A stretch of DNA of 50,803 bases, from positions 1 through 50,803 of IMG/VR virus record IMGVR_UViG_3300042893_002153; one strand, 5' to 3'. Both the position numbers and the translations under genes were made by a program. The DNA is from a virus (taxonomy: Duplodnaviria > Caudoviricetes). Of the stretch, positions 1-26,511 are shown in pieces. The notes beneath the pieces are model-generated. The model saw only the letters and a program-made list of their open reading frames with translations, was not told the origin of the DNA and made no database searches. Position 1 is the stretch's first letter. Each line of letters begins with the position of its first letter.

Positions 1-112
1 TATAATAAAATCAAGAGGTAATTATGGCTATTGAAAACAAAGAAGATTTAGTAAAAAAAGTTGCGGTGTTAGAAGACAAACTTTTACCACTCAGACAAGC
101 AAGTGAAGAACT
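1..112. repeat. Terminal overlap, copy 1 (identical to 50692-50803); circular or terminally redundant assembly
   Basis: Exact 112-nt identity with the window end, breaking inside ORF 24..428. Confidence 0.97.
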
Positions 113-428
113 TGTTCTTGTTAAAAAACAACTTGTAGACGTGTTAAAAAGCAAAGAAGAAGTTATTGCTAATGAACACACTGTAAGAAAAGAATTACAA
201 AAATTACAAGCAGAATTTGGTGGAAACATAAAAATCATTGAAGCAAAAGATAAACAAATTGAAACATTAAAAGCAGATTTAAATAAACTTGCTACATTGT
301 TTGATGAATATATTGTTGCCTATCAAGACCAAGTGAAGATGCTTGGCGTGTTCGTAAAAAATACTCAAACCGTAGAAAAATATCTAACGGTAAAAATAAA
401 TGAGTTTAATGGAGGAAATAAAAAATGA
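24..428 (+). CDS. Coiled-coil hypothetical protein in the tail-fibre region
   Basis: 134 aa, K/E/L heptad-rich; GAGG RBS; ATGA overlap with the next gene. Confidence 0.75.
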   Translation: MAIENKEDLVKKVAVLEDKLLPLRQASEELVLVKKQLVDVLKSKEEVIANEHTVRKELQKLQAEFGGNIKIIEAKDKQIETLKADLNKLATLFDEYIVAYQDQVKMLGVFVKNTQTVEKYLTVKINEFNGGNKK

Positions 429-1906
429 TTATTAAACGTTGGGACGGGTCGGCATTCGTAAAAGAATTTCCAGAAACAAAAGCGCAGTTAATTCGTAATA
501 ACGGAGATACTGAAAACATCTTTGATGGAAATGATAAATTAAAACTAAACTATTTACCAGATGCAGTATTTGATAGTTTGTATTTTGTAAACACAACAGG
601 AGATGTTTATGGTGCTACAAGTGGAAGTTTAGGAACTTTAACATGGGACGCAATCCAAAACGCTGCGAGTGCAACAAGAAGTGCCAAAGGTTCTTATTAT
701 GTTGCAGACGACCCATTTACTTTTTCTCAAACTACGACATCAACCGATTTTTCTGGAACATACATTATTGCTACATTTTCTTCTCGTGATAATGACTCAG
801 TTGGTGCGTCTGCTAATGGTGGTTCAACCGCAAATAACGTTTTAGAAGTTGGTGATTGGCTTGTTTTGACCAATTTAACGGGCGCTGGAACTGTTGGTAG
901 TCCATACGTTGCTACTTGGGCTGTGGTCAATAACGTTTATGATAATGCTACAACTTCAATTTTTGGTCTTACTCAATTATCTTCACGCACGACTTACGCT
1001 TCATTAAGTGGTAGTAACGTTGTTACTGAAAGCGTGTTAAAAACAGTTGTTGATAACGCTGCATTTGCTTCTGGAACTCACGTTCACGGAAATATTACAA
1101 ACGCTGGTGCAATCGGTTCTACAGCAACTTTACCAATCATTACTGGGGCAAGTGGTGTTTTAACGGCAGGTTCTTTTGGAACAACCGCTGGAACATTCGC
1201 ACAAGGTAATGACTCACGATTATCCGATGCAAGAACCCCAACCTCACACGTCCACGGTAATATTACCAACGTAGGTGCGATTGGTTCAACTGCAAACTTA
1301 CCAATCATTACCACAACGAGTGGTGTTTTAATTGCAGGTTCGTTTGGCACAACGGCTAATACATTTACGCAAGGTAATGACAGCCGTTTATCAGACGCAA
1401 GAACTCCAACTTCACACGTTCACGGCGACATTTCTAACGCTGGTGCGATTACAAGCACGGTTATTACTCCTGCAACAGGCGACGCAATTATTTTAAGTGA
1501 TACAAGCGCCTCTGATGCTTTAAAACGTGGTATCTCGATTGGCACAAGCACAACCACCTTCTTACGTAACGATGGAACTTGGGGAACGCCAGTAGACACA
1601 AATACAACTTATTCAGTAGCAACTTCTACCGTTTTAGGGCTTGTTGAATTGTTTAGCGATACTCAACAATCAGTAGCAGCTAACGCAGTCAGTTCGACAG
1701 CACTTAGAACGTATGGTGTCCAATTAAACTCTAACAACCAAGCCGTTGTAAACGTTCCTTGGACTGATACCGACACGGTTGCAACTGTGACTGCCTTGGG
1801 TGGTTTATCAGCAACTTCTAACTCATTTCGAATGGTTCACCCATTCTTCGTTCAAGCAGACGCACCATCTACTCCTTTAACAGGCACAATTTGGTTTGAT
1901 ATTTAG
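425..1906 (+). CDS. Tail fibre / receptor-binding-type protein with HxH repeats
   Basis: Thr/Ser/Gly-rich; three HVHG motifs; GNDSRLSDARTP repeats; ATxxxxGLxxL fibre repeats; N-term IIKRWDG and C-term P-x2-P-x-TG-x2-WFDI. Confidence 0.8.
   Translation: MIIKRWDGSAFVKEFPETKAQLIRNNGDTENIFDGNDKLKLNYLPDAVFDSLYFVNTTGDVYGATSGSLGTLTWDAIQNAASATRSAKGSYYVADDPFTFSQTTTSTDFSGTYIIATFSSRDNDSVGASANGGSTANNVLEVGDWLVLTNLTGAGTVGSPYVATWAVVNNVYDNATTSIFGLTQLSSRTTYASLSGSNVVTESVLKTVVDNAAFASGTHVHGNITNAGAIGSTATLPIITGASGVLTAGSFGTTAGTFAQGNDSRLSDARTPTSHVHGNITNVGAIGSTANLPIITTTSGVLIAGSFGTTANTFTQGNDSRLSDARTPTSHVHGDISNAGAITSTVITPATGDAIILSDTSASDALKRGISIGTSTTTFLRNDGTWGTPVDTNTTYSVATSTVLGLVELFSDTQQSVAANAVSSTALRTYGVQLNSNNQAVVNVPWTDTDTVATVTALGGLSATSNSFRMVHPFFVQADAPSTPLTGTIWFDI
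1079..1455 (+). repeat. 168-nt (56-aa) tandem repeat, two full units plus a partial third
   Basis: HVHG codons start at 1079, 1247 and 1415; protein is near-identical with many synonymous DNA changes. Confidence 0.9.
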
Positions 1907-1924
1907 TAGGGTGGTGAATGGTAT

Positions 1925-2578
1925 ATGCCAGACACTATCTTAAAACGATGGAACGGTTCTTCGTTCGAGGAACTTTATCCTAAAACAACTGTAGGTCAAA
2001 TCTCAGCAAGTGGAACGCTATCAAGTTCTACTTTTCTTCGTGGCGATGGTCAGTGGCAAACTCCTGCTACGCAATCTCATACACACGGAAATATCACTAA
2101 CGCTGGCGCGATAGGTTCAACAAGTGGTTTGGGAGTTGTTACAACAACAAGTGGGGTTTTAACAACGCGTTCAATTAGCGACAGCACGACATTAACAATT
2201 TTAGATAGTGCATCAACAAACCTTGTGACTGAACGAGATGTTTATTTTGGAACACACTATATATTTATAGATGTTAGCGCTGCGATAGCAAATTCAACAA
2301 CTTTTACAACAATGACTATTACAAGTGGTATGCGTGATTTTCTTTTGCATATTCACCAAGATTCTACAACGGGTGCAGTTGTCGCAAATATGAGTTTTAC
2401 TACGGCAAGTTCCGAAAGTATGGGAACGGCAACACCAGGCAAAACACACCGTGTTGAGTGGTCTAACGGTTCTGCGGCGCAAAGAATGAATATTGAAGTA
2501 TTTTTATCTGGAACAACTTTATCTTTTAGACACAGTTTTACAGGTGCTTCTTTGGCTTTTAGATGGTTTGGAAGATAG
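1925..2578 (+). CDS. Short distal tail fibre protein
   Basis: N-term ILKRWNG; shares FLRxDGxWxTP and HTHGNITNAGAIGST with the upstream fibre; beta-rich C-terminal head. Confidence 0.75.
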   Translation: MPDTILKRWNGSSFEELYPKTTVGQISASGTLSSSTFLRGDGQWQTPATQSHTHGNITNAGAIGSTSGLGVVTTTSGVLTTRSISDSTTLTILDSASTNLVTERDVYFGTHYIFIDVSAAIANSTTFTTMTITSGMRDFLLHIHQDSTTGAVVANMSFTTASSESMGTATPGKTHRVEWSNGSAAQRMNIEVFLSGTTLSFRHSFTGASLAFRWFGR

Positions 2579-2580
2579 TG

Positions 2581-2589
2581 TGTTATAAT
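2581..2589 (+). promoter_or_regulatory. Extended -10 promoter TGtTATAAT
   Basis: Consensus TGnTATAAT followed by AAAGGA RBS and ATG at 2608. Confidence 0.65.
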
Positions 2590-2607
2590 ATTGAAAGGAA
2601 ATAAAAT

Positions 2608-2883
2608 ATGGCAGAATCAACTCTCAAACGTGTAGGCGTAAGTGGTTATAACAAACCAAAACGCACACCCTCTCACCCAAAGAAATCACATGTTGTTGTT
2701 GCGAAGGTCGGAAGAAAAGTGAAGACCATTCGTTTCGGACAACAAGGTGTAAGTGGTGCTGGAGCAAATCCAAAATCTGAAAAAGACAAAGCGAGACAAA
2801 AATCGTTCAAAGCACGTCACGGAAGAAACATTGCAAAAGGAAAGATGTCTGCAGCGTATTGGGCAGATAAGGTGAAATGGTAA
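2608..2883 (+). CDS. Small basic conserved phage protein (KTIRFGQQG / SFKARH / SAAYWA type)
   Basis: 91 aa, K/R-rich; motif set resembles a widespread aquatic-phage protein of unknown function. Confidence 0.8.
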   Translation: MAESTLKRVGVSGYNKPKRTPSHPKKSHVVVAKVGRKVKTIRFGQQGVSGAGANPKSEKDKARQKSFKARHGRNIAKGKMSAAYWADKVKW

Positions 2884-3035
2884 TGAAAAAAGGATTATAC
2901 GCAAACATACACGCGAAACGCAAACGCATTAAAGCCGGTAGTGGAGAACGTATGCGAAAAGTAGGAAGTAAAGGCGCACCGAAGCGCAAAGACTTCGTTC
3001 GTTCAGCAAAAACTGCAAAGAAGGGAGGACGTTAA
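2883..3035 (+). CDS. 50-aa basic protein MKKGLYANIHAKRKRIKAGSGERMRKVGSKGAP... (absent from the ORF track)
   Basis: TAATG overlap with the previous stop; GLYANIHAKRKR...KGAP motif resembles small aquatic-phage proteins. Confidence 0.8.
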   Translation: MKKGLYANIHAKRKRIKAGSGERMRKVGSKGAPKRKDFVRSAKTAKKGGR

Positions 3036-3036
3036 T

Positions 3037-3138
3037 ATGCCAAAAGGTATTGGATATGGAAAAAAAGCGATGAAGAAGTTAGGTAAGGGTAAAGTCAACA
3101 AGATGCGCAAAGCCAAAGGAATGAAGGTGATGAGGTAA
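3037..3138 (+). CDS. 33-aa K/G/M-rich basic peptide MPKGIGYGKKAMKK... (absent from the ORF track)
   Basis: GGAGG RBS upstream; TAATG overlap with the next gene. Confidence 0.65.
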   Translation: MPKGIGYGKKAMKKLGKGKVNKMRKAKGMKVMR

Positions 3139-3782
3139 TGGACGGATTAGAATTAGTTTCTGGAACAATCGAACAGTTAATTGCTGCTATTCCGCAGATT
3201 GTGCTGGTGTTAACCACACTTGTGTACGCTTTGCGGAGTATTGGCAATAAAGTTGGAACTTATCCAAAGATTGCGAACGAAACAAAAAGTAGCGTCGATT
3301 TAAGTCTTGCTGGAATCAAAACAAACCTTGATACCAGTCTTTCTGCGATTAAAGCAAAGATTGAAGGCATTCTAAGTGTTTCACAAGAAAGATTTATCAC
3401 AACATTAGAAGCAAGCAATAATGAAACACAGAACAAGATTAGCAAAACACTTGCCACAATGGAAACCGAACTTACCACTTACAAGAATCAACTTGCTACT
3501 AATATTGAACAAACAAACTTACTCTCTCGTCAAAACAAAATCTTTATGGACGTAATTTTAGAGTTGGTAGCAAAAGACCCAATTAAAGTAAGCCAAGGAA
3601 TCACCCAAGCCGTTTCTACTAAAATCAATCTTACAAAAGAAGAACTAGAAAAATACCCAGAAATTCTAGTCAAAGATAAAAAGGTTTTAGAATCAGCATT
3701 ACAAGAAGCGTATAAGTTAATGGGCAAAGTTTCCTTCGAAAAATTGTTGAAGAACATTGGATATGGAAAAGAAAACAATTAA
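3138..3782 (+). CDS. Membrane-anchored coiled-coil protein
   Basis: N-terminal hydrophobic helix (LIAAIPQIVLVLTTLVYAL) followed by helical coiled coil. Confidence 0.75.
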   Translation: MDGLELVSGTIEQLIAAIPQIVLVLTTLVYALRSIGNKVGTYPKIANETKSSVDLSLAGIKTNLDTSLSAIKAKIEGILSVSQERFITTLEASNNETQNKISKTLATMETELTTYKNQLATNIEQTNLLSRQNKIFMDVILELVAKDPIKVSQGITQAVSTKINLTKEELEKYPEILVKDKKVLESALQEAYKLMGKVSFEKLLKNIGYGKENN

Positions 3783-4281
3783 TTACCGCCGAAAATCCCG
3801 CACTTATAAAGCGTTGGGTTATACTTCCCTGGGAATCGGAACTCTCGGCGGTTTTTTTGTTTATCAACTCGCTACTGATTGGAGCCAATTTCAAACCGAA
3901 CTAGAAAACTTCGTTGTTATTAATCAACAATCCGTCAAATTAAACTTTGTTCTTGCAATACCGATTTTGTTATCCATCATTATCTTTACTTGGATTACCA
4001 TGCGCAAAAATCGTGAGTTCTTTAAAGATAAAGTAAGTCTAAGTCTTTTGATGACCATTTCTTCCTTGTATTTAGTGTATAGCATTATCGAAATAACACT
4101 TGCCACCTTGATTGGTGCTTTCGCGGGTGCGATTATTGATGAGTTTGTTTTTAACCCACTAGCGATTGCCAACAAGCAAAAGTTTTTGGAAAGCAAAGAT
4201 GTTGACACCGAGTATGATAAAGAAATGCGCCGTATTAAAGCAAGACAGAAAGTTAAGGAAGATTTAGATGGAAGCGTCTGA
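3763..4281 (+). CDS. Multi-pass membrane protein (about 4 TM)
   Basis: Basic N-terminus, four hydrophobic segments, charged C-terminus; ATG at 3763 preferred over TTG at 3757. Confidence 0.75.
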   Translation: MEKKTINYRRKSRTYKALGYTSLGIGTLGGFFVYQLATDWSQFQTELENFVVINQQSVKLNFVLAIPILLSIIIFTWITMRKNREFFKDKVSLSLLMTISSLYLVYSIIEITLATLIGAFAGAIIDEFVFNPLAIANKQKFLESKDVDTEYDKEMRRIKARQKVKEDLDGSV

Positions 4282-5341
4282 TTTTCAAACTAAAGATAGT
4301 GTTTTTTATTCAACATATACCAAGGCTCGTTCTTGGATTTCGACTTTTTTAGGCATCATTTTAACAGTCCTTGGTATTTCCGTTGTCTTTATTGTTTCAT
4401 CTCTCGAAGGCACCAAAGAGATTCAAGCGCCCAGTGCCGTTTCTGCGGCCATTTTAAACGCATGGAGAGAACAAAACCCAGGTGAGTTATATCCAGAGCC
4501 TCGCGCGGACGTGTTCGTGTATGACGGCAAGGAATACTATTTTGTGATTAATAGCGACAACCCAGAAACCGAAGTTATAGAAGACTGGCACTTTTCCTAT
4601 GATGGTGGACTTGATTATGTTTTTAGCGATTATAAGTTTTATGTGTTGACCGCAATAACCACTGTGGTTTCTATTTATGTTGCGTATGTAAACTATATAA
4701 CCACTTCTAGAAGCGTCATGGGAACCGAAGCGTTTGTTAAAACATTAAAACATTACCAAGAAAAGAAACTAAAAATAGAAAAGTACACACAATATATCCC
4801 CGACTTTTGTCTTTATAAGAACCGTCAAGCATATGAAAACGCCAAGCGGGACATCATCGAAGAAGCAGCGATTGCCTATGATGTTTATGATAAAAACAGG
4901 TTAAATTATGACTTTTTCAAAAAACTTCAACCTTGGCAACTAAAAACATTAAAGAAGATTAAGAAGATTAAAGTCCAAAAGATTTACTCCGCTGACCTTT
5001 TACAAGAGCATAACGCAGGTGGGCTTGAATTAAGTATTAAGATGCTTCCACAAAGCCAAAAAGAGCACCAAAAGATGTTTGTATGGGGTGGCGTATTACA
5101 ACGCGTCCTTACCAGTGCTTTAAGTGGTCTTACCGTTGCGTTTGGCATCGTTTTAGGTAATTGGGTGCTTGGCATCACTTACGGCATCAGTGTCTTTATT
5201 AGTTTTGTGTCCGCTGTTGTTATTGCAACCGATTTTGTCAGCACAACATTGCGCAATCGCTTTCTTGCCAAAGCCGACCTTTTGAACGAGTTTGATAACA
5301 TTAAAGAGTTGTTTATCAAAACCGAAACAAAAAGTGTATAA
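4268..5341 (+). CDS. Multi-pass membrane protein with a soluble middle domain
   Basis: Hydrophobic segments at about aa 23-43, 124-143 and 270-325. Confidence 0.75.
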   Translation: MEASDFQTKDSVFYSTYTKARSWISTFLGIILTVLGISVVFIVSSLEGTKEIQAPSAVSAAILNAWREQNPGELYPEPRADVFVYDGKEYYFVINSDNPETEVIEDWHFSYDGGLDYVFSDYKFYVLTAITTVVSIYVAYVNYITTSRSVMGTEAFVKTLKHYQEKKLKIEKYTQYIPDFCLYKNRQAYENAKRDIIEEAAIAYDVYDKNRLNYDFFKKLQPWQLKTLKKIKKIKVQKIYSADLLQEHNAGGLELSIKMLPQSQKEHQKMFVWGGVLQRVLTSALSGLTVAFGIVLGNWVLGITYGISVFISFVSAVVIATDFVSTTLRNRFLAKADLLNEFDNIKELFIKTETKSV

Positions 5342-5360
5342 TAAAGGGAGGAAAAAAAAC

Positions 5361-6665
5361 ATGGCAATATCAACAACACAAGCAGCAGGTTATAGCGGTC
5401 AACCAACCACCACTACCACACCAACCACTTCCCCAAACAGCACAACAAATGTTATTTCTTCGACCTCCGTCGGCACAAATCCAGCAACTTTTTTATATGA
5501 TGTTGGTTTACAAAATATATACCAAGACTATCAAAAAAATGTGTCAATATTAAATCAAGCCGAACAACAATCATTACAAGACGCTTATACTGTTCGCGAA
5601 ATGAGTAAAAAATATCTTGGAGAGTATGCGTCAAATGTCGGTATTGGTGATGTAAGTGGAAATCTCTTGGATATTTATGGGCAATATCAACAAATGGTTT
5701 CCGCAACACGTAGCGCATTCCAGGGCGAAGAATTTAAACTTCAATCCGAGTTTGATAAAGCAAGAAGAGAGTTAGAAGCAGGAAAACTAGCATCAGGTCT
5801 TGCGCCAGAAGGCGAACCTGGCAGTCGCGGCATTATTGACTATGGTTCTCAATTTTTACCAGGAACAACTGATGTAAACCCAGACTATATTCCTGGATTT
5901 AATGCAAAAACATATTACCCCGACGATGTTGAAGTTGGTGATAATTCAAGAGTATTAAAAGTCGCTGGTGTCGAATATGTTTCGGTTGCTTTACCAGCCG
6001 GTGAAGAAAATAACTCCGCTTTTACCTTCACTACAGACGATATTAATGAATGGTATGGCAAGGCTTTTAATAATCCAAACAGTCCGTATTATCAAAAACC
6101 CGCGATGGCAGGTGCGGTTGTTTTTTTCGAAGATAACCAAACTTACTATTATAAAGGTCAAGACAATAAATGGTATCGTTTAAAAGGGGGAACTGGCGTT
6201 CAAACCAGTAATCAAATGGAATCGACTAATAATAATTTCTATATTCCATCGGATTCTACTTCTAACACCGCAAACGTTAACGGTCAACTAGTTGTTTTTT
6301 CAGTTGAACCAATAGATAAACTTAATACTTTAGGCGGACCAGATTTAGATAAACTTAAAGTATCTTATGGTGGTGTTGATTACACCATTCCTTTTGCTTC
6401 AGCGACTGGAAACCGAACAGTGATTGATGACAATTTTTCTTTTAAAGCAACCGATAACCCAAACATGACCGCAGACCAAAAAAATATATTAGACGAATTT
6501 TTTAAAAAACATAACACAGCAAGAACTCAAAAAGAAAGAGATAAAAGAGATTCAAAAAACCTTCGGCCAAATTCTTTTGTGTTTTATCGAGGCAAGTTTT
6601 ACGCCTTTACAAGTGGTAAAATAGTAGAAATGCGTAGAAGCACTCCAGCAACGACACAGGGGTAA
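5361..6665 (+). CDS. Putative internal virion / DNA-ejection protein
   Basis: Start moved to MAISTTQ (AGGGAGG RBS, TATAAT upstream); Thr-rich N-terminus and Q/Y-rich helical region; lies directly before the giant protein. Confidence 0.55.
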   Translation: MAISTTQAAGYSGQPTTTTTPTTSPNSTTNVISSTSVGTNPATFLYDVGLQNIYQDYQKNVSILNQAEQQSLQDAYTVREMSKKYLGEYASNVGIGDVSGNLLDIYGQYQQMVSATRSAFQGEEFKLQSEFDKARRELEAGKLASGLAPEGEPGSRGIIDYGSQFLPGTTDVNPDYIPGFNAKTYYPDDVEVGDNSRVLKVAGVEYVSVALPAGEENNSAFTFTTDDINEWYGKAFNNPNSPYYQKPAMAGAVVFFEDNQTYYYKGQDNKWYRLKGGTGVQTSNQMESTNNNFYIPSDSTSNTANVNGQLVVFSVEPIDKLNTLGGPDLDKLKVSYGGVDYTIPFASATGNRTVIDDNFSFKATDNPNMTADQKNILDEFFKKHNTARTQKERDKRDSKNLRPNSFVFYRGKFYAFTSGKIVEMRRSTPATTQG

Positions 6666-6668
6666 CAT

Positions 6669-9600
6669 ATGGCAACACAATATTATGGGCCGATTGCACC
6701 TTTGGTCCAAGATGCTATTAACCAAGCAACCACAAAAGTAGAAAACACCTTTAAAGAAAACAGTCTTTTAATCGACCGACTTACTAACCCAACTAAATAC
6801 ATGACACCGGGCGAAATCGGTTTTGCCTTGACTAATAGTGCGGTATACGATGTGTTTAAAGGAATGACTCAATCTGTTACCGGTCTTGTTTTTGGCACAG
6901 GACTTGCTTTGTGGGATTTACTGGTTGACATTCGCAACACCGTAAATGCGCCAACCAAAGAAGCAATGTTAAAAGAAGGAGTTAGTGCAATTTATCGTTT
7001 ATCCAACAACGTGCTTACCGCTTTAGGAACAACGGGGGCGGGGTTGTTGTCGGTTGGTGCCGAAGTGCTTACACTAGGTTACGCCGATACTACGTGGGCG
7101 CAAGACTATGCAAAAAACCTTCAAGTCCTAAATCGACAATATGCTTATTATCAATCAAGAGGTCAAGATAATGTAGGTCGTTTTATGAGTGAAGCAATGG
7201 TTGCTACTGGGAACCCGTTGTATGATGCAGCGCTTTTAAACAAAGATGACCCACTTTTAAAAGACGCATTTAACCAACAAGCCTTATACGCAGAAGATTA
7301 CGAAAAAAAATTTGGGGAAAGTTTTAAAAATATTGTCAACCAATCAGCAAACATTAAAAAGTTTATTGACAAAGAAATTTTTGATACAATCGTAAAAACC
7401 GCTGGATTAAAACAACAAAAAGACATTGCAGACATGCTTTATGCTGACTCACCACTATATCAAGCGTTTTCCGGTGTTTTACAAAGCATTGGTGCTATTT
7501 TAATGGCGCAAGGACTTGCAAAATTTTCTAATGCGCAAGGTTTAACAAACCCAGAGCAATCAGCAGCACTTGCCACGGCTTATTTCGGAACACAAGTTTT
7601 TGGTAACTCTTTCGAACAAGCCATTGATAACGGCGCATCTATTTCTGACGCATATATGTTTGCCACCGCCAACGCCGTCATTGAAACAATGATTGAACAA
7701 ATTGGTGGTTTAAAACTGGGGCTTGATAAAAATATATTGCCAACAACATTTCAAGCGTTTTTAAGAAATGGTTTTGAAGAAGGTATTGAAGAAGTCATGT
7801 CTGAGTTTTTAACTCCAGGTTTTGACCTTTATTCTGTACCATTAAAAGACCAAAAAGATTTCAAACTAGACCGAATGACCGATAAAGACATTATTCAAAG
7901 AATGTTTTTTGCTTTTGCTTCGGGTGCGGTTTCTGGTGGTGTTTTTGGTGCAACCAATCAATTTATCTATAATCAATCATTAGAAGGCAAGTTTGGCATG
8001 GTTCAAGCAGCATTTAAACAAGATGTTCAAAAGGTTGGTAAAGAAAGAGCGGTTTTATATCTTCGCCAACGATTACGTGAACTTATTAAATCTTTAAACA
8101 ATCCAAACCTGCAAGGATACAAAGTTAATAAAGGGCAGGGTTACTCGCTTTCTACCTTAACGACCGCCGAAAAGATTCAGTATATTAAAAACTTAGGTTT
8201 TGGTCGTATTATTGATATCGATGTAAATGATTTAAGCCGTGGTGCTCTTGGCACAAAAGACCAACCACTGACACCAGAACAATTCGAGGACGTTTTAAAC
8301 AATGGATATTTTTCGTTTAAATTAAGAAAAGATTTTGTCATTGACGAAACGGTTTTTCAACCCATTTACAACAACCAACGAATTAGTGTTCAAGAGTGGG
8401 CAGTTAACGCGGCCAGTGGTGGTGAAACACTTAACAACTCTCGCGTTGGTCCAGGCAAACCATTTATTCCACTAATGAGAGCAAACCTTACCCCTGTTGG
8501 TAAATCTATTTTAGCAATGGCTGATAAGTCCGGCGTTCCGATTGTGGTTGTGGCAAGTGACGCTTTACAACCAGAACTAAAAAACGAAGTGGCTTTCTAT
8601 ATTAATGGTGTTATTTTCTTTAATCAAAGTGCCGAAGTTGATGCTAATACAGCACTTGCCGAAGTAAGAAAACACGAGTTAATACACTTAATCGCCCGTC
8701 GTCTTCCACAACAATATAAAGAAATAGAAGAAGAAGTTCGCTCTTTGATAGATTTTAACCAGCTGATTCAAGTAGACCCTAAAAATGGAACTATTTCACT
8801 TAACTACAATGCCGAGTTTATTAAAGGTTTGTTTACTCCCGAACAACAAAAACAGTTTTTCGATAACTTAGACACCGCGCTTGCGGATATATTAGATACA
8901 TTTGGTGGTTCCGAAAAAATATTTGCCTTAATGCGTCTTGCTCAAAATCCAGAAACTGACGCCGATACAAAGAAACGTGCTGCAAACCGCGTTCGTATCA
9001 TTACCGAATCTATTGCTGTAAGAATGGGCGAAGAAACCACGTCGTATTTTGTCGAGGCAATGGTTAAGGATTCTGCCGCTTTTGTTAGAGCCATCGAAAC
9101 ACAAAACCCAAACATTCGCGAACGCTTAAAAAACTTTGTATCAAGAATGGCCCAAATCACGCGCGAACGTCGTTTCCAAAAGCAAATGGAAAGAATCTTT
9201 GGTGCAAACGCGCCATCGGCCGCAACACTGTCAACAGGTGAAGTTAAACCAGTTGGTAAAGCCGCCGAAGTTATCGAATCCGTGGAACAAAAGATTACTG
9301 CCGCAACAAGAAAATTAGTAAAAGAAAGAAGTTCATTAGACTATTTTTATCGTAACTTCTTTGCTTCAAGAGAGTCTTTACGACAATTTATCAACCCAAC
9401 AATATTAAAGAAATACAACGAAGATATGGACCTCATATTTGAATCGCTTTCCCGCGCGATAGAAATTGACCCGTATTCTAAAGTTATGTCCATTGAAGGC
9501 ACGCAGTATAACATTGAAGACGTGTTTGCTGGAAACATGGACTTTGCTTCAAAGAAAACCGATAAACAAAAAACATCATTACAAATCTTTTCCGAAAACT

Positions 9601-12600
9601 GGAATCCAAACGAAGAACTTAACTTTATGGAATTTAACGGCCTTATTGATGCTCTTTCGGTAGATTTCGGAAATTTTTCAAATAAAGATATACAACAAAT
9701 ACAACAAGTCACAAAGAAAAAATCTGTTTACTTTTATTTTATTTTAGAAATGTATAAAACCATTCTTGAAGAAGAAACCGAAGCCTTATCAGCGGGTCTT
9801 GGAAACGCGACTGGTAAAGAAGCCGAAGAGATGAGAAAGAAACTAAAACTATTAAAAACAAGGGCCGGAATTGTATCTCTTCTTTCAAACGAAATATACC
9901 CAAGCAGACCCGTTACAAACACTTTAGATTTTGATTCAAAATATATAAACGATAATATGAGTTTAAAAGCATTTGAAGATATGGGTGCTATTTTTGGGGA
10001 CGTTTCTTACAACGGTCTTTCTTTTTTAGACGGGATTAGAAATAACAAATTAGCCGCAAGTGCTGGAGAAATTATGCTAATAGCCGCTGAAATAAGTAAA
10101 AGCGCAACATTAACTGATTACTTTAAAAAAAATGACGAATTGATTCTCGATAAAGAAACAAAAAGAAGAATTCTTATTATTGCCGAGTTCAGTATTATGA
10201 ACTATGCTAAAAACCTAATGAAGAAAAATATTGTTTCGGTTCCGTCGGAAAGGGGAACCCAAAAAGCAAGAATAATTTCAAAACTAAAAAGAGAAGCAAG
10301 ACAAGAAACGTCAGTTGTTCAAAAAACACTTTCACATGCTGCCTATAACGCAACGCAAAAACTTGCCAACTGGATTGCCAACAATCAAATAAAAGTTCCA
10401 CCATTTCTTCAAGGTGCTAATTTTATTAATAGTTCCTTTTCTACTTTTGACATCAATAACCCAGGTGGCATATATGTCGAAATAGACCTTTCAGAAGATT
10501 TAAAACAACTAAAAACTAAAAAAGAAAAACAAGAATATTTAGACATCATTAAGCAGTCTTATGACCTAATGTTACACACCTTTTTAGAAGGAACACACAT
10601 TGCTTCCAACAATAAGAAGATTAAGTTTGGTTTGGATAATTACGAATATGAAGTTGAACTATTAGAAAAAGATGTTTTAACCAAAAAATCCATGAAATCA
10701 GAAGATGTTGGACTTACGGTTTACATTTACCCAACAGTTAAAAACATTCAAGAATATATTAAAAAAATTGAAGAAAATGAAAAAGAATTAAATCAAACAA
10801 AAGAAACAAAACCTGATGTTATTGCAGAAGCAAAAAACAACTTCCAAAACATTATTTTAACAAACGAAGTATTAGATGGCGACAACCAACTAACAAGCGC
10901 CGCGGTTTTAAATAACGCACAATCTAACATAAGTAACAAAGTTATTAATCAACTGTCAAACATTATTCCAAGCATGGTTCAACCTTTGTCTGGTAAAGAA
11001 GTTGTGGCAAGTGTAAATCTTCCTTGGGGTAAAAGTGTAAAAGTATCTAACACAATGTTTGAAGCAAAAGCATTAATAGAAGAAGGACTAAGAAACGACA
11101 TTAAAAGAAGAAATATTGATGTTGAAATTGGAAAAGACGTTGAAATACGATATTTTCTTGTAAGCACGCTTTTACCAACTGGTTCGTTTTATGACACTTA
11201 TTTTAAAGACTCAAATCATTTCGGAACCGGTTATTACTTTACCCACTTAGAAGAAAGAAACATGCAAGAGTTTGATGCCAAAATGAAGACCGATTCTGGT
11301 TCTTTGTCATCATCGAAAAAGTTTTTAATTGGTTTTTTTGTTGGTAAAAGATTTATTTCTAGCAGTAAAAACCAGAATTTACCAGATTTAAAACATATTG
11401 ATAAACTTTTAAACGGAGAAGACAGTTTTGTAAAAGCATCATATCGTCTTGCTAAAAAAGAAATAAAAGATAATATTTACAACCAGTTTGACGGAATTTT
11501 CAGTTTGGAAATGAACCTTATTGACGCTGATAATTTTTATAAAAATGTAATTAAACCATTTAACCAATTCAAAGTTATTGGAACAACTTTAACCGCACCA
11601 GAAAAAGCCCTTACAAGCAGTTTTGATGAAGAAATAAGAGGTTTAATTGGAGAAATTCAAGTAAAACAACGCTCACCTTTGTCATCAGAACAAGATACAG
11701 AAATCAAAAATGAATATATTCCAGATTCAGTATTTGCTTCCGAAATGTCTTATCATCTTTTTAATTTGTTTTTTAAAGGAATGAAAAACCCATATGACAC
11801 TCCAATTACAAATATATTAAAAGAAAAACCATATCATATTGTTGCCTTAGAACGTATCGCGAAAATAACTTCAAAGAAGTCGACAGCAAACACTTACCCT
11901 TTTGAAACTTTTTTTGAAACCATAGTGAATGATGTTAAAAAAGATTTGTTGGCGGAAGAACGCGAATTTGAAGAAGAGTTCCCTTTTATTCCAACGTATT
12001 TTAAAAGCCTTACGTTAAAAGAATTTACCGCAGGTTTTTTTAAATCTCCCGAAAGTTTTAAAGAATCTAAATACCACAACAAACTAATTGGATTAGATAA
12101 TTCCTACGTTGAAATAAACCCAAAAATATGGAAAACCATTGATGACAAAATTACTCTCGATATAAAAAACATTTTTGGACTTTCCCAAGAGTTTTTTGTT
12201 TTGTTTTTACAGCAAGATTTCAGAGATGAAAATAATCAATACGACTTAGTAGCAAAAATATTTAAAAAAGTTGAAAACAATGAAGGCAATATAAGAAAAA
12301 TCATTATAGATAATATAAAGTCTATAATAGAAAATCTAAAAAAAGAACAAAAAGAAGTTGTGTTTTTTAACCGTCCAAGAGGTTACGTAGTTAGAGCGGA
12401 AAAAAGCGCAGAGGTTCCAGACGAAAGACAAACAAAACGATATAACTTGGTAAAAACTGCCTACGAAGATGTTGAAGATTCTGCTTTGGTTGTGTTTGAA
12501 AAACTCTTAAAAGATTTTGAATATGTTGAAAAAATAGATGCAGATTCTAGTTTTTGGTTACAGAACGAAAGTTTATACGATTCAATACTAAATTTAAAAT

Positions 12601-15600
12601 ATTCTGTAAGTCTTTACACCAATTACAAGACAACAAGAAAACTTATCGAGGTATTTAATAAAGATTTTACAGACTTTAAAAAAATACACCACAGAACCGC
12701 CAGAGAAATCTTTGAACTCAGAGAGCGGTTCTATGAAACCCAAACAAAAGTAGTGGTTTTAGGACACCCAGCATACAACAAAAGCGGAATTTTGTATCAC
12801 GCGTCGAAATTTTTAGATTTTACTTCTATTTTTTTGAATAAAGACGTAAATACGGGACAAGGTTATAACACGTACTATACTTACCTTATGGGATATCTAG
12901 ATTTTGAAAATAATGATTTTTTAACAATGTTTGCAGAGTTTGCAAAAGCACGTCTTGTTAACGATACCGTGCTCAACAATAATGACATGTTTAAAAACGG
13001 CGCTATTGCTAACAGAGTAATGTTAGATATGAAAAACGAATTTCGAGGTTATAAAGAAGATTTACAAAATGGAAAAATATCTTATAAATACATGATAAAC
13101 CCTTTTCAAGAATTTTTAAAAATTTATGATTTTATCGGTGTTGATTTAAGAGAAATTTCTAAAGTTATTCCAGAAATTGCCGAAAAAGGAAGCACAGTTT
13201 TATATCTTTCGCAAAACACGGCGGAAATACTTTCAAAAGACAATTACTCTGAGTTAAAAGATGAAGATGGTGTAAAAAAATCTTTCACCATTGGTGCAAC
13301 CAAAGAAGAGATTCCTTTATTAACGGTTCAAGTTGGAAACCAAGAAGGTTCTTATTTAAGTAGTGATTCGGTAGAAAAACTTCTACAAGAACCCTTTAAG
13401 ATTTACACACTCAATACCACTATTAATTTTGAAAGTATTGGCCTTGGTATTAAAAACACAATAAACTCATATACTGATAATTTACCGAATGAAGCAGAAA
13501 AAATTCTTGTTCAAACAAAGGCACCACAATTAAACTATCCCGTAATAAAAATATCCCCAAGCAAAATGGAAACATTCAGTCAAGACTCGACGGGGGTTTA
13601 TTTAAACACGGACGTTGCGAGAAAATTAATAAATGCCCACCCACTTTTAAAAGACAGTGAAGGAAGAATTTTAAGACTTTATCACGGAACAAAAACTCTC
13701 TTTAAAGATTTTTCTTACGCGTTTTTACAAAAAGTTGGCCTCGCTTATGGTCCAGGCTTTTATTTTGCCAGCGACATTGAAACAAGTAGTGATTATGCAA
13801 GATTTGATGTTACAACCCCAAAAAGTGAAGATAAAAGTAACACAGCACTAAAACAAGAAGGCGTTTTAAAAGAAGTTTATCTGAATATTAAGAAACCAAT
13901 CTATTTTGAAGACGACAGAAGTGTTGACCGAATCGCAAAAATGGGTAACACAGTTTTTTCGAGAAACGAATTCGCTTCTATTTTTAAAGAACTTGTTGCA
14001 AAAGAATTGGATACGAACGGTAACCTTCCAGAATTAGTGAAAAAGGTCATGTTTGAATTTTATTTTGAAGACCCACTTACTTATGGTATATTTGACATTA
14101 AAAAATTAAAAACCCCCGAAGAGTTTGCTGCTTTTTTATTAAATAATTCTGGTGGGTTTACTCAATATGATTCTTTTTCAAACCAAGAAGAATTAGCGGT
14201 TCCAGGGGTTATGCTTTCAACTCTCGTTCGGCGATGGAGAACTTATTTAATTACAAAATATCTTTTACAAAACCGAGTTATTACAGAGAATGAATTAGAT
14301 GAAATTCTAAAAAACAACAAAGAAGAAACCGTTCAAGGGCATTTCAGAAAATCTGTTGGTTTTACACACGAATCAATTTTAGATGACAAAATACAAAAAT
14401 ATTTACAAAAACAAGATATCGAAAACTTTTATTACAACATTTGGGGTAATTCGTTTAAAGATGTTTTAACCGCGACCACTGACGCAACGGGTTACGATGG
14501 TATTGTTAACCGAGCGGAAAGAGAAGGTCATATTATTGTTGCTTTCAACCCAAAACAAATTATCGATGTCAATGACGCTGTTTCTATTAGAGAAACGTCG
14601 GAATTTGACCCTTCTACCGTCGTTCAAGAATTTAACCCAAACAGTATTACAGTTATCCAACCATACTTTGACGCACCTTATATTCAATCTTCATTTAAAA
14701 AAGCGTTTAATTTATCCCCTGTTGTATACGCTATTGTTCCCGCGCTTTGGATTAACAGTAGGGAAAATCAAAGGCTCGTCGACCCAGATAAGAAACTGAT
14801 TTATGTTGAGCGTTTAACCACACCATTACCAATGGACACTAGTGATAACTTTGGTAAGTTTGCTGGCGCACGTGCTATTAACGCCGCTATTATGATTTGG
14901 GCAGATAAAACACACCCTGTATTTAAAGATTATCAAGATTTACGTGAATCACTAGAAACTAAGAAACGATATGAAACCAACGACTTTGTTTATCGTTTTA
15001 TGAAGAATAGAAATACCGAAGAAGACGCAAAAGTTAAAAAAACATTTACTGATTCTGATGGTAAAACCTCTATTAGTTTTGCCGTTCCTTATTTAGGAGT
15101 TGGTGCAAGTTACAACACAAAGATTAATGATTTTGACCAAATTCCTTTGACTGGTAAATACATTGTTATTAAAGCCTCGTCGCCACAGGTTTTAGAACGA
15201 TTAAACAAGATTGATTTTGGTAAGTTGGCAGAAAATGGTGCTGTTTTAAAGGGTAAAGGGTTCCGTGCTTCCGAACTTATTGAAGAATATAATCGTATTA
15301 AAGAAAACTCCGAAGACTTATTTGATACTCTCGACAAGGGTGAAACTGTATATAAACGTGTTTCTAAAAAGAAAACAACCGCCCGAAAGATTAACGCCCA
15401 AGAAGAATCGGACATCAGAAGTGTGTTTGGCGATAAAATTATCCGTGAAATGCTTACGGTTGACGAAAATGGCAACTTCCAAGTTAAAGCCAATTCTATT
15501 CCTACCCGTGTTAAAGCAGAAGCGAAGATTAAATTAGACGGCGCAGAGTTTTCAGAAAAAACACACGCCATTAATATCCCTTTTGAAAATTTACCAGAAG

Positions 15601-18600
15601 TCGTAACGGGTTATAAATATGAAGTTTTAACCGTTCAAGAACTGTCTTCTACACCTTATCTCAAACTGTTTTATGACATTATGAAACAAACCAATATCAC
15701 TTTTGTTTTTACAAGAAATTGGAAGGGTAAAAAGAACGTAAGAGGAATTTCTTTCCATCAAAAAGTCGCTTTTATTATTATTGACAACATCAAAAAGGGT
15801 TTAGAAGGTAAACCACTCGAATTCCAAAAACGATTAGCAACGATTTTAATTCATGAAAACTTACATGAGTTAGAAATGGAAGAAAATTTACATCACGAAC
15901 TAGGGCAAGAACTTGCTTTACTGATGTTTTCCGTCAATTCATCTACCAACACAATGGAAATTTCACCTTTTGGTAAAAACTTCTTCGATGAAATCTTTGC
16001 ACAGGGCGAACCACAATTACCAAACTCATGGGAATCGACTGGCTTTATGGAATTCTTACGTTATATGGAAGGCTATAAATACGCAAGAAAATACCTTAAC
16101 GCCGACGATATTTCACGCATTTTACGCACACCAAAAACAGTATTAAAAACCGAAAAAGATGGGGACAGTAAGGCAAGATTAAAAGGCGAGTTAGTTGCTC
16201 AAATCGGTGGTTATTTAATGGCAGACATGGAAACAATGACTAAGGTTTATGGACTAAAACTAACCGACGCACAAACGCTCACTCTGTTCCAAACTATTTC
16301 TAAAATGCAAGCCAATCCTAATAACACAGCTACTGGTAAAGCATTCTTGATGATTACCTTTGAAAAATATAAAGAACTTTTTGATAACTACATCAAGGGA
16401 TTACAAGCACAGTTCCCAAGCCAAAAGCGGTTCAGCGTTAAAACTATTAATGAATTCATTGCTAAATTCACTGATAACGAATTTACAACCAAGGTCGATT
16501 TAATAAGAACCTACGTTAAAGAACGCGAAGCAGGTCATCGTCGCAAGGCAACCATCGCCCTAGACAAAATCATTTATGTTGCCTCTTTATTAAGCAAGAC
16601 AGTTCAAGAAGCAACGGAAGGCTTTATCGCTTTAAGAAAAGAATTTGTCGACTTACAAGAAAACTCGATGTATCTTTTAAACCTTGAAAATTCCGATGTG
16701 GTTAAATTAAGTGATAATACCATCGAAAAACTAATTAAACAAATTAGAAGTAGATTTAAACAACTTCGCGACGGCACCGAACTCGAAACCATTATTCTGA
16801 ACAGAAAAGATTTAACCAAACAAGACCCAAACAAAGATTTCGAATTAGAAGAATGGTTCCTTGAAGCAAAAGAAATTTTAGAAGGAATCAAAGAAAAGTA
16901 TGACGTAATTCCAGATGAAGTCATTAAAATATTTGGCATTAAAGAAAAACTCGAAGTGTTCCAAAGCCTGACCCAACTTTCCGCAACTCTGCAAGCAATG
17001 GAAACCTTATTTAACAACGACGGAAAATGGGATAAACAAAACGTTACTTTCGCGGAACACCTTGTTGCCGAACTAGAAAAAATTGAAGATGTATTAACAC
17101 CATATTTTACGGCTGTAAACTATGTCAGAACAGGCGCGTTAAACCCAATCGTAACCCCAATGGCAGTTTTCGGTGCGCAAGTTCAAGTAAGGACCAGATT
17201 AGAAAACAAAGAAATAGAACTATTAAAACTTTATTTCAAACAAAAGATTAACTCTGCGGTCAATAAATTGATGGAAGCACGTCTTCAAAAGGATTCTCCA
17301 GCAAGTCCATTTATTTTAAAGATGACGAAAATAATTGAAGATATGAGTGTTTCTATCAACAAAACTAACGTTACGGTTCAAGAAATTGCCAAAGAATTAA
17401 GTGCTAAGGTTTTTATTTTTGTCGACGAAGCAAACGCCGCCATCAGAAAAAACTTTGTGGGTATAGAAAGACAAGAAGCGTATGAACGATTATCGCAAGT
17501 AACCACACTACTTTCCCGTGGTATTGGTGGCATGCTTATGGAATTATCTTTGATGGCTCGCGACACAACCATTTTAGATAATGCGGTTTCAAAGGGTTAT
17601 TTAACACAAGAACAAATGGACCAAATGATTGAGTTTTATAAAAAAAGAAAACTTACATTTTCCGCATCTGCTTTCGCAAGTGGGGTTGCTAGAATTATCA
17701 ATGCTTTTGCGACAAGATACGAAAGTATATTTGGCATGGGCGAAAACGTTACAAACGATGAATATGTAGTCAATATGCACAAACAAATTACAAACCTTGG
17801 CGAAAACAAAGTAAGACCAGTGGTTGAAAAGTTGTGGCAAATCCTGACACCGCAAGATTTCCTTGGTAGATTATCCGATTTGTTTGAAGGTAAAGTGGAT
17901 TTATTCCCTGCCATTCTAAAACTATATGAAGAAGCAACTGAACGTTCCGAAAAAATTTCGGCGGATTTCCACAAAAAATATATTGAGTTTATCAAAAACA
18001 ACCCTGGCATTCAAAAATATTCCATTGAAGAAACGCTTGATGTTTCAACCGACTATTTAATTGGGTTGCCAACTGATACTTTTCAAAAATTAGTGGAAGA
18101 AGTTAAAGTAGAAATGAAAGCCGAAAAAGAACGAATTCAAGCAATGGGCGAAGACGATACATTAAAAGAAGAATATAAAGTTTTAAAAGAAGAAAAAGTA
18201 AAACTTCAAGAAGAAAAGAAGAAGTATCAACGGGGAAGCGCTAATTGGTTAAAAATAAATCAAGATATCCGTGTTTTGACCGCTCAGATGAGTGCAAAAA
18301 GAACTGAATTAAACAATCAAAAAGACCAAATTAAACTAGCCAAAGAATCATTTAAAAACAACGATTCCGACAGCAGGTTGAAAGTTAAAATTGCAGAGTT
18401 CTTGGTTGATAATCCAAACATCACGCTTAATCAAAACTTACCAAAAGGCACCATCGCTGCTCTGTATTTAATGGTTGCGCGTGAAGTTGAAATGCTTGAA
18501 ATCTTCGAAAAGGCGAGAGAAACAGATACAGATACACTTATTAAACCAACAAACCACTTCCGTTTTAGTAACCAAATTAACATTTTGGATAACCGAATTC

Positions 18601-20747: not shown

Positions 20748-21018
20748 AATAGAAAAAATAAAAAAAACCATGAAGGAACTCTTCTTGACTAGAGAGGGTT
20801 GGATTTCATGGTTTGTCGCAAATGTGATTACTTCTTTGCCTTGGTTTTTACCACTGACATACGGATTTTTGTTTCAAGATGAGGGTGCTTATATGGCGGC
20901 CGCTGCAGTTTACGCCTTTATCTTACTGCCACTCACACCATTTTGGATACTAAACGTGATTATAGCAGTTTGGTTTACTAAACTACTTACCAAAAAGCAT
21001 GTCGAGAAGCGTTTTTGA
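20734..21018 (+). CDS. Small 2-TM membrane protein
   Basis: Basic N-terminus then two Trp/Pro-rich hydrophobic helices; start uncertain (20734 or 20770); overlaps the convergent MTase end. Confidence 0.6.
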   Translation: MKKDRIEKIKKTMKELFLTREGWISWFVANVITSLPWFLPLTYGFLFQDEGAYMAAAAVYAFILLPLTPFWILNVIIAVWFTKLLTKKHVEKRF

Positions 21019-22032: not shown

Positions 22033-22327
22033 TTTGACCTCTGATGTAAGTGTTGATAAAGGTTTCCATTTCCTTTTCACCGTTTATTAGAAAATACTTG
22101 CCACCACTGTCGGTGATGGTGAACAACCATAATTTCTGCATAGGAGTAAGTTTGTAAGATGTTTCGTTTTTGACTTCCACATAGAATATTTGTTTACTCT
22201 TTGTATTAAAAACAATTCTGTCAGGAAATCCAACATTGTTTTCTGCCCAACCCTTAATACATTTTATGTTTAATATTTTACACGCTTTAACCAACATTGC
22301 TTCAACTTGTTTTTCTAATAGTTTCAT
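22022..22327 (-). CDS. VRR-NUC domain nuclease (probable junction resolvase)
   Basis: EKQVE...GFPDRIV...FYVEVK...LTPMQ. Confidence 0.88.
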   Translation of the reverse strand: MKLLEKQVEAMLVKACKILNIKCIKGWAENNVGFPDRIVFNTKSKQIFYVEVKNETSYKLTPMQKLWLFTITDSGGKYFLINGEKEMETFINTYIRGQNGR

Positions 22328-22878: not shown

Positions 22879-23261
22879 TTTAATTGTTCTCCCATCTGTC
22901 TTTTGACTTCTGTAATAAACTTGTTGAGTTTTTCACCCACTTCTGACTTTTCATATGTATTTAGTTTTTTCTCCTTTATTTCCATGGTTTCTTCGACTTT
23001 GAATCTAAACAACTTATCGCATAGAACGAAACAAGCCAATCCGTTTATTTCTATTTTGACGTTATAGTCGTTTGGCAAACCGAAGAATTTTTGGTTTGAA
23101 CTAATCATAAGACCATAAACATCATTGATAAGGTGGTTGTTTTCATCTTGCTTTTGCGTGTAGATACAAACATAGTAGTGTTTGTTTATTCCGAACTCGC
23201 TTTGCGATAACTTATAAAATATATCGAACGGCTTTAACTCATTCGTTAACATCTTCTGCAT
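22875..23261 (-). CDS. PemK/MazF-like fold protein
   Basis: DIFY...KHYYVCI...VYGLMISS...FVLCDKL...C-terminal helix parallels the MazF pattern. Confidence 0.5.
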   Translation of the reverse strand: MQKMLTNELKPFDIFYKLSQSEFGINKHYYVCIYTQKQDENNHLINDVYGLMISSNQKFFGLPNDYNVKIEINGLACFVLCDKLFRFKVEETMEIKEKKLNTYEKSEVGEKLNKFITEVKRQMGEQLK

Positions 23262-26504: not shown

Positions 26505-26511
26505 ACAACTG

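Follow-up and report, generated by a model that had tools for sequence, protein, structure and literature searches.

A conserved five-gene module of three membrane proteins, a helical protein, and a giant polyvalent protein, tentatively read as an ejection apparatus, in tailed phages with no recognizable lysin

INTRODUCTION

To our knowledge, only the ejection proteins of podoviruses that infect Gram-negative bacteria are understood. In the available portion of one account (PMC8954989), they are described as being encoded together beside the tail genes and as diverging faster than the portal; gp14-like members are about 200 amino acids (aa) long with 4 to 5 predicted membrane helices, gp15-like members are helical proteins of 431 to 982 aa, and gp16-like members are the largest and have C-terminal membrane helices. 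Polyvalent proteins have been argued to be injected along with the DNA (Iyer et al. 2017, PMC5512222, in the text available to us). Here, we analyze three overlapping genes for membrane proteins, TM1, TM2, and TM3 (positions 3138 to 5341), in a virus of the Caudoviricetes (Duplodnaviria) recorded in IMG/VR as IMGVR_UViG_3300042893_002153. The whole stretch of DNA analyzed, 50,803 bp, is referred to below as the window.

An earlier note on this DNA had read the trio as a possible lysis/release or DNA entry complex of a phage that infects a wall-less host. We report that the trio belongs to a larger conserved module, and we weigh what that module might do, whether the clade encodes an enzyme that cuts the cell wall, and what its hosts could be.

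RESULTS

The trio is the front of a conserved module

TM1, TM2, and TM3 are the front of a five-gene module, TM1-TM2-TM3-p434-giant, and not an isolated cassette. Among the loci fetched with the TM3 alignment, some of which duplicate one contig (L005 = L002 and L045 = L007), 25 kept the order TM1-TM2-TM3-p434 on a single strand, and in 19 the giant gene directly followed p434. Every related locus of sufficient length kept the order, with the sole exception of L049, where an extra 326-aa open reading frame (ORF) stands between TM2 and the TM3-like ORF. Contig C102 of the metagenome-assembled genome (MAG) G002 also has the module, with its TM3 slot filled by a 325-aa ORF of three helices that blastp left unmatched. 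One check proposed in the earlier note was the synteny of the trio against the presence of a lysin in related phages; the module order is kept, and a lysin was not found in the clade.

The module also extends to a distant relative, the 39.6-kb contig C22 of the MAG G445 (G445:C22), whose terL and portal products are 29% and 24% identical to those of the window. The corresponding series there consists of ORFs of 152 aa (1 helix), 152 aa (3 helices), 301 aa (a short form of TM3), 428 aa, and 2482 aa. An integrase and a CI-type repressor are encoded beside the giant gene, and G445:C22 is apparently a temperate phage contig. Because the module is present in so distant a relative, we take it to be old and not confined to virulent phages. 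A single-protein scan for further loci of short-form TM3 relatives found none. We also observed on this contig (L096 to L098, about 20414 to 23860) a diversity-generating retroelement, in which a reverse transcriptase adjoins a fiber-like protein containing DUF6273.

A comparison with 50,697 phage records yielded no match to the first 25 kb of the window, to TM3 (tblastn), to two of its short-form relatives, or to the giant protein, of which 1000 aa from each end were compared; terL gave only matches of about 27% identity. Keyword searches of the literature, which were not exhaustive and had supplements outside their scope, found no description of the trio or the clade.

Topology and conservation of the three membrane proteins

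Hydropathy and AlphaFold2 (AF2) modeling bore out the earlier observation of three overlapping membrane-protein genes, with a fourth at 20734 to 21018, including the topologies proposed for them. TM1 (214 aa, positions 3138 to 3782, plus strand) has by hydropathy a single hydrophobic helix at the N terminus, after which comes a long stretch that is helical or coiled. Its alignment (A7, n = 24) resolves a short acidic N terminus, one membrane helix with an invariant proline (P19), an amphipathic helical or coiled region of variable length, and a C-terminal domain that is conserved. As a profile, the helical region matched apolipoprotein A-IV repeats in the PDB (E = 4e-6), which may reflect amphipathic composition only; TM1 had no family match in Pfam or PHROGs.

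TM2 (172 aa, positions 3763 to 4281, plus strand, with an alternative TTG start at 3757) has 3 to 4 helices by hydropathy. A basic N terminus, three strong hydrophobic segments with a weaker N-terminal one, and a charged C-terminal tail make up the protein. In the TM2 alignment (A8, n = 28), 27 relatives are 37 to 84% identical to the window's protein, and 15 columns are invariant. Nothing in Pfam or PHROGs fell below an E value of 0.0097, and the best match of the A8 profile in the PDB was an aquaporin at E = 0.36.

TM3 (357 aa, positions 4268 to 5341, plus strand) has four membrane helices in its AF2 model (predicted local distance difference test score [pLDDT] of 76, predicted template modeling score of 0.61). 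The model also places an α/β ectodomain of about 75 aa at residues 50 to 120 and a lysine-rich helical domain of about 125 aa at residues 150 to 275. We detected 134 homologues at E ≤ 1e-3, mostly on contigs of 47 to 53 kb and none with an informative name; over the 118 homologues aligned (A4), identity was 44 to 95%, except for one 35% outlier (L007). A profile search at the same threshold returned 206 clusters at 50% identity, many of which are short forms of 280 to 350 aa that do not have the ectodomain.

PDB profile searches with A4, A7, and A8 returned nothing relevant, and a Foldseek comparison of the TM3 fold with the PDB gave no match (best E = 0.18). In BFVD, three matches at E ≤ 0.001 were to uncharacterized phage proteins of about 300 aa (best E = 1.6e-6, TM-scores 0.55/0.62); ESM Atlas look-alikes scored 0.83 to 0.86, under the level worth following. 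The three reading frames are interlocked, with TM1 and TM2 overlapping by 20 nucleotides (26 from the TTG start) and TM2 and TM3 by 14.

p434, the giant protein, and the ORF that follows

Directly after the trio, p434 (positions 5361 to 6665, plus strand) has a disordered N terminus, a helical hairpin at residues 41 to 146, and a variable β-rich C terminus. The hairpin is rich in invariant positions, with 20 invariant columns within residues 1 to 109 of its alignment (A9). AF2 modeled p434 with low confidence (pLDDT of 61) as a helical hairpin with small β domains, and searching this model against the PDB gave neither a fold match (best E = 0.13) nor a lysin fold.

The giant gene (positions 6669 to 20747, plus strand) encodes 4692 aa. 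By the ART-PolyVal domain predicted at residues 2329 to 2430 (Pfam PF18760, E = 1.3e-10, above the family cutoff), it is a polyvalent protein, a class of very large late-gene products that combine several unrelated effector domains. Giants of the clade span 2450 to 4692 aa. Both ends are conserved, over 700 aa at the N terminus and 900 aa at the C terminus, and the middle part is swapped among ART, GNAT, and unknown domains. Across 11 giants, ART-PolyVal occurred in four, GNAT in two, and DUF3990 in one. In the conserved N-terminal region, H669 and E670 are invariant (alignment A6, 11 giants), and we read them as part of a putative HExxH metallopeptidase motif because HELIH stands in the sequence. 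The conserved C-terminal region of about 900 aa holds a hydrophobic helix at residues 4395 to 4413; the distance of this hydrophobic segment from the C terminus is 297 to 322 residues in six of seven clade giants and 383 in G445:C22.

The stop of the giant gene is overlapped by a 94-aa ORF (positions 20734 to 21018, plus strand) with two membrane helices and charged ends. A homologue that is 59% identical occurs at the same junction in the relative G003 (G003:C1:47415-47699, minus strand), and none was found in G004, G001, or G002, so this ORF is not conserved in position and lies outside the conserved module. No Pfam or PHROG holin family matched it or any member of the trio. Holins are usually shorter than 150 aa, with 1 to 4 membrane helices and a charged C terminus, and we consider the 94-aa ORF, not the trio, the better holin candidate.

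A tentative reading as an ejection apparatus

The module sits where P22/T7-type podoviruses encode their ejection proteins, in the late operon after the fiber genes. The portals of relatives carry PF16510 (P22_portal). The window's own portal has no Pfam match, and its sole relatives among isolates, found by tblastn, are those of the Bacillus podophages Page, Pony, and Pascal (19 to 20% identity, E = 3e-15); the portal of Page is annotated as "podovirus-type." Families of tail tube, sheath, or tape-measure proteins were absent from the matches in the window, though most tail genes there have no match at all. By size and helix count, TM2 fits as a gp14-like member, and p434 appears to occupy the gp15-like slot. 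Because TM2, p434, and the giant protein fit the known pattern of size, order, and hydrophobic segments, and because polyvalent proteins are thought to be injected, we read TM1 to TM3 as the membrane-inserting part of an ejection apparatus. Between the two functions that the earlier note had offered, DNA entry is thus the better supported, by synteny with p434 and the giant gene and by the position in the ejection slot; a lysis role gained no positive support.

We therefore favor, tentatively and with a confidence that falls a little short of even, the reading that the trio are virion-delivered, channel-forming ejection proteins and not a lysis cassette; packaging, expulsion, and channel formation are steps that we infer. 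The module would then serve a short-tailed phage of the P22/T7 type as its ejection (pilot) apparatus, and the phage would infect a low-GC host that uses Shine-Dalgarno sites. Its proteins would be made late, in proportions fixed by the overlapping reading frames, and packed into the virion, and on adsorption they would exit by way of the portal and tail. TM1, TM3, and TM2, the last of which resembles gp14 in size and helix count, would insert into the host cytoplasmic membrane and form a conduit there with p434 and the giant's hydrophobic C-terminal part. The DNA and the giant's putative effector domains (ADP-ribosyltransferase and metallopeptidase) could enter the cell through this conduit.

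Several observations weigh against ejection. We found no sequence, profile, or fold similarity between the trio and known ejection proteins, although those of T7 were presumably among the PDB chains searched; we therefore do not file the module as a member of the T7 or P22 families. Compared with G003, TM2 and TM3 are 78 to 79% identical and the portal is 59% identical, contrary to the faster divergence expected of ejection proteins; the comparison with G004 agrees with that expectation, in that the trio is 33 to 40% identical and the portal and capsid protein are 60 to 65% identical. The helices of the trio are strongly hydrophobic, with Kyte-Doolittle values of up to 2.6. As read from the alignments and hydropathy, the charge pattern appears to be positive-inside, as for insertion from the cytoplasm of the producing cell, and it would suit a packaged complex no better than one that resides in the membrane. 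Packaging of the trio in the virion is itself an assumption.

A resident complex of this kind could serve as a membrane platform that anchors the assembly or cargo loading of procapsids (the giant is a protein of about 530 kDa), or it could block superinfection. The predicted topology, which suggests cytoplasmic insertion and large cytoplasmic domains, would suit such a platform, as would the strict co-occurrence of the trio with the giant cargo gene. There is also a precedent for a membrane exclusion protein beside ejection genes in P22, namely, SieA, as described in the accessible part of PMC10883804. However, exclusion genes are usually accessory or variable, whereas the trio is universal in the clade, and three translationally coupled proteins exceed what exclusion usually needs. 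Membrane-bound assembly had no positive support, no similarity to any protein of either kind was found, and we judge the platform quite improbable.

A different use of the same membrane insertion would be exit, with TM1 to TM3 acting in the membrane of the infected cell to release progeny, either by holin-like permeabilization or by a budding-like formation of vesicles suited to a wall-less host. Neither a lysin nor a recognized holin was found anywhere in the genome, most of the soluble mass of the trio is predicted to face the cytoplasm and could touch finished particles, and the helical region of TM1 resembles lipid-binding apolipoprotein repeats. Budding-like release is described for the short-tailed Mollicutes phages L3, SpV3, and ai, whose genes for it are not known (PMC13375369, in the part available), and one relative of the window is in a MAG (G002) where markers of peptidoglycan synthesis were not found. 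The trio, though, was never found without p434 and the giant gene, and its place is within the block of virion genes, not at an operon end. The size of TM3 and its strong conservation are unlike those of holins, there is no adjacent lysin, and the separate 94-aa ORF, located where Page encodes its holins, looks more like a holin. The temperate contig G445:C22, whose tetranucleotide signature fits a walled genome (r = 0.66), carries the module as well. On this evidence, we regard exit as an unlikely role for the trio and retain ejection as the preferred reading.

No recognizable wall-degrading enzyme in the clade

The earlier note had reported no recognizable lysin, and this held in Pfam, PHROG, six-frame family, and PDB searches. 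No peptidoglycan hydrolase family, whether amidase, muramidase, CHAP/NlpC, M23, transglycosylase, or L,D-peptidase, was detected in the window with PHROGs (54 of 54 ORFs) or Pfam (53 of 54, the 66-aa ORF at 40606 to 40806 having been left out). Six-frame searches of the window for Amidase_3, Amidase_2, Glyco_hydro_25, and NLPC_P60 gave nothing, and phmmer searches of the 4692-aa and 1323-aa proteins against the PDB gave nothing relevant. A crude regular-expression scan for lysin motifs had no match inside the listed feature ORFs; its sole matches, to a loose Amidase_3 pattern, lay outside them or ran across stop codons.

The relatives gave the same result. No wall-degrading family was found, among the 25 listed of the 29 families matched, in 59 accessory ORFs of at least 100 aa from 42 metagenome loci and other loci (88 ORFs of at least 70 aa minus the shorter ones and the L045 duplicates), nor in 24 accessory ORFs from two related virus records and one MAG contig, and the 11 giants had no peptidoglycan hydrolase domain. 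In all, no lysin was seen across four related phage genomes, 83 accessory ORFs, and 11 giants. In G445:C22, four six-frame family searches, two PDB searches, and Pfam on 10 of about 45 ORFs likewise found none.

Pfam and PHROGs also miss the window's own portal and capsid protein, and an absent hidden Markov model (HMM) match is therefore weaker evidence here than it would be in a well-annotated phage. At the HMM level, the absence of a peptidoglycan hydrolase is real and clade-wide as far as these sequence searches reach, and it is still compatible with a very divergent lysin. Such a lysin could be in the giant, in the 1323-aa protein (p1323), or in a small ORF of a phage of walled Bacillota, and the absent match would then be uninformative about the host. 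The relatives in the walled MAGs G001 and G445 point in this direction, as do the portal that is 85% identical under the label "Bacilli bacterium" and G445:C22 itself, which has an integrase and a repressor, resembles G445 in composition, and is also without the four common lysin families. Lysin domains, on the other hand, are among the easiest phage domains to detect, the 54 ORFs of the window, the 83 accessory ORFs, and the 11 giants were without a lysin match, and the distant relative Page shows a virion hydrolase and an endolysin plainly. We consider a walled host with a divergent lysin a real possibility, if one that falls well short of probable.

Host

DNA of the window occurs in metagenome runs from lake water and freshwater. 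A Shine-Dalgarno-like motif precedes 29 of 52 genes, compared with 3.9% of random positions. The VapE primase-helicase is closest (32 to 34% identity) to those of phages of Bacteroidota. Bacteroidota rarely use Shine-Dalgarno sites, and because of the frequency of such motifs in the window, we rejected a Bacteroidota host. The host is probably monoderm.

Contigs related to the window were found in MAGs labeled Lachnospiraceae (G001), Tenericutes (G002), and Syntrophomonadaceae, and related proteins were labeled Methanoculleus and "Bacilli bacterium." As these labels are mutually discordant, we did not accept binning labels alone as evidence of the host. We therefore set the gene content of the MAGs beside their composition. 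In G002, whose completeness is not known, no penicillin-binding protein (PBP) transpeptidase, FtsW/RodA, or MraY-family gene was found, and a single weak Mur-ligase-like match was taken as FolC-like. G001 encodes 5 PBPs, MraY, and Mur ligases and has 4 SEDS-family (FtsW/RodA) matches; G445 has 3 SEDS-family matches and MraY-family genes in a search that covered those two families. Both are walled, Lachnospiraceae-type MAGs that hold relatives of the window. An Amidase_2 domain was also observed in G002, within a 1104-aa ORF (G002:C27:28266-28670); it could be a weapon against neighbors, a misbinned contig, or a prophage gene.

Tetranucleotide correlations between phage contigs and their MAGs were 0.63 for the G002 phage contigs, 0.66 for G445:C22, and 0.24 for G001:C8, where halves of one chromosome correlate at 0.93 to 0.99. 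An in-clade relative is thus plausibly tied to G002, a genome in which no marker of peptidoglycan synthesis was found, and the distant temperate relative G445:C22 is plausibly tied to a walled genome.

The matching of CRISPR spacers and prophages to hosts, which the earlier note had suggested, produced no link in a limited search. When positions 1 to 20000 of the window were blasted against 158 genomes of the order to which G002 belongs, only weak AT-rich matches were returned, and the two best short matches (two candidates were scored per genome) were not in a repeat array. Positions 20001 to 40000 searched against G001 and G002 matched only the phage contigs themselves, and no prophage link to a host was found. 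The portal was detected in 2 of the 158 genomes, G002 and one weak partial match, and that order is therefore not enriched for the phage. The best lead to the host is a contig of 1,258,361 bp in NCBI/Logan that encodes a portal homologue (P0169) 68% identical to that of the window; either a copy is integrated there in a small genome or the contig is misassembled.

The earlier proposal of a wall-less host is neither shown nor refuted by these data. The clade has no recognized lysin and no marker of peptidoglycan synthesis was found in G002, and on the other side stand the relatives in walled MAGs and the temperate contig that fits a walled genome. The earlier note had named two outcomes that would count against it, a divergent lysin or the assignment of a host to a walled taxon; neither was seen. 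We think that a wall-less host is plausible but somewhat unlikely. The probability that remains beyond a wall-less host and an unrecognized lysin goes to other explanations, for example, reliance on host autolysins.

Genome organization

The window is a complete phage genome with an exact 112-bp direct terminal repeat (DTR), classed in IMG/VR as DTR and 100% complete. Its G+C content is 36%, and no tRNAs were found. The 54 ORFs placed on it end in TAA (27), TGA (15), or TAG (12) and contain 154 TGG codons and no in-frame TGA; the window uses the standard bacterial code (code 11), and the earlier description of TGA as a stop and TGG as the tryptophan codon was correct. No integrase family was found in its ORFs with PHROGs (all 54) or Pfam (53 of 54).

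The late operon starts on the plus strand with terS (from 38504), followed by terL (from 38856), the portal gene (40810 to 42723), genes for a putative scaffold and capsid, and the gene for p1323. It then continues across the terminal repeat with a coiled-coil protein, two fibers, three tiny basic proteins, the trio, p434, the giant gene, and the 94-aa ORF, at which it ends (21018). Within the module, a scan for promoters and terminators found no intergenic signal above chance.

The two fiber proteins (425 to 2578, plus strand) have a repeated motif in common, HVHGNITNAGAIGST...GSFGTTA...QGNDSRLSDARTPTSH, and the fiber region is swapped in relatives for WD40-like propellers, Listeria-Bacteroides repeats, BspA-type leucine-rich repeats, or a GDSL lipase or T4 gp36-like domain. 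Three tiny ORFs at 2608 to 3138, all on the plus strand, come directly 5' of the trio. The first, bas91 (2608 to 2883), encodes a very basic protein of 91 aa that matches phrog_7595 (E = 4.6e-39), is 72 to 91% identical in relatives, and weakly matches phrog_220, "minor head protein and DNA pilot" (E = 6.9e-4); encoded just 5' of the module, it is probably an internal protein of the virion or one associated with DNA. The second, sm52 (2877 to 3035), encodes a basic protein of 52 aa that matches phrog_16028 (E = 8.3e-25) and is 60 to 98% identical in relatives. Both phrog_7595 and phrog_16028 are annotated as of unknown function. The third (3037 to 3138) encodes a very basic protein of 33 aa without a family match in Pfam or PHROGs, and its stop overlaps the start of TM1 (TAATG). 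It is possible that all three (91, 52, and 33 aa) are internal proteins associated with the DNA.

The minus strand, from 38230 to 20983, carries the replication genes, including those for a methyltransferase, a VRR-NUC protein, the VapE-type primase-helicase, a Cas4-like exonuclease, Sak, an SNF2 helicase, and an AAA/VWA pair. Among its small ORFs, one matches Pyr_excise (pyrimidine dimer DNA glycosylase, E = 1e-6) and others match DUF3846 and DUF4314. Predicted membrane helices were also seen at 37410 to 37628 and 38103 to 38525, where both ORFs are of low complexity and look spurious; the latter has a TTG start and overlaps the end of a gene on the opposite strand.

DISCUSSION

If the ejection reading is right, the module would be a new form of such an apparatus, with polyvalent cargo and three integral membrane proteins dedicated to it, in a clade without a recognizable lysin. 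Its parts would be the three unannotated membrane proteins, p434 as a helical adaptor, and the polyvalent giant of 2450 to 4692 aa, and it would be represented in at least 206 clusters at 50% identity. The module links the delivery of polyvalent effectors to defined membrane proteins, and the two can be tested together.

A clade-wide absence of recognizable wall-degrading enzymes is rare among tailed phages. Since the clade has no recognizable lysin, we expect that its hosts are without peptidoglycan or that it encodes an undiscovered lysin family; either answer would be of use. We speculate that the clade infects wall-less, Mollicutes-like Bacillota of lakes, digesters, and guts and has no hydrolases at all, so that the trio, p434, and the giant protein would form a membrane-only ejectosome and possibly an egress device too. 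We hold this combined picture to be doubtful; were it true, the module would be the first molecular entry point to the question of how tailed phages get across a cytoplasmic membrane that has no wall around it.

Comparison with known systems

Short-tailed double-stranded DNA phages that have wall-less hosts and leave by budding-like release are represented by Acholeplasma phage L3 and the Spiroplasma phages SpV3 and ai (PMC13375369, in the part available), and theirs is the kind of biology that the earlier note had proposed. With holins, the 94-aa ORF shares its size, its two helices, and its charged ends; the members of the trio (214, 172, and 357 aa) are larger and well conserved, and no lysin adjoins them.

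Bacillus phage Page (Pagevirus) has a similar order of late genes, with a very large protein of 1679 aa at its end. Immediately ahead of the gene for that protein, Page encodes a virion hydrolase of 246 aa ("lytic tail fiber protein") that we judge, by reading its sequence and not by a family search, to be NlpC/P60-like and transglycosylase-like; in the same place, the window has its membrane proteins and p434. After the large gene, Page has two holins and an L-alanyl-D-glutamate peptidase endolysin, whereas the window has the single 94-aa two-helix ORF and no endolysin.

The giant protein resembles the described polyvalent proteins in its ART-PolyVal domain, its location among late virion genes, and its predicted injection. 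In the portion of PMC5512222 available to us, polyvalent proteins frequently have lysozyme domains, which none of the 11 giants here has, and an adjoining trio of membrane proteins is not described there. Phi29-like phages of Gram-positive hosts are without ejection proteins according to the available text of PMC8954989, which reports no genes for such proteins in phages of monoderm bacteria, the kind of host that the phage of the window probably has.

The closest parallels are T7 gp14/gp15/gp16 and P22 gp7/gp20/gp16, which, in the sources as available to us, are like the module consecutive late genes beside tail genes. Both sets comprise a small multihelix protein, a midsized helical protein, and a largest protein that comes last and has a C-terminal hydrophobic helix. 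TM2, with 172 aa and 3 to 4 helices, is comparable in size to gp14-like proteins (about 200 aa and 4 to 5 helices), and the placement of gp14-like genes beside gp15-like and gp16-like genes is matched by the order TM2-TM3-p434-giant after the fiber genes. T7 gp16 has a peptidoglycan hydrolase domain, and none was found in the giant of the module. The module further differs from the T7 and P22 sets in having three dedicated membrane proteins instead of one and in ending with a protein of 4692 aa that is polyvalent.

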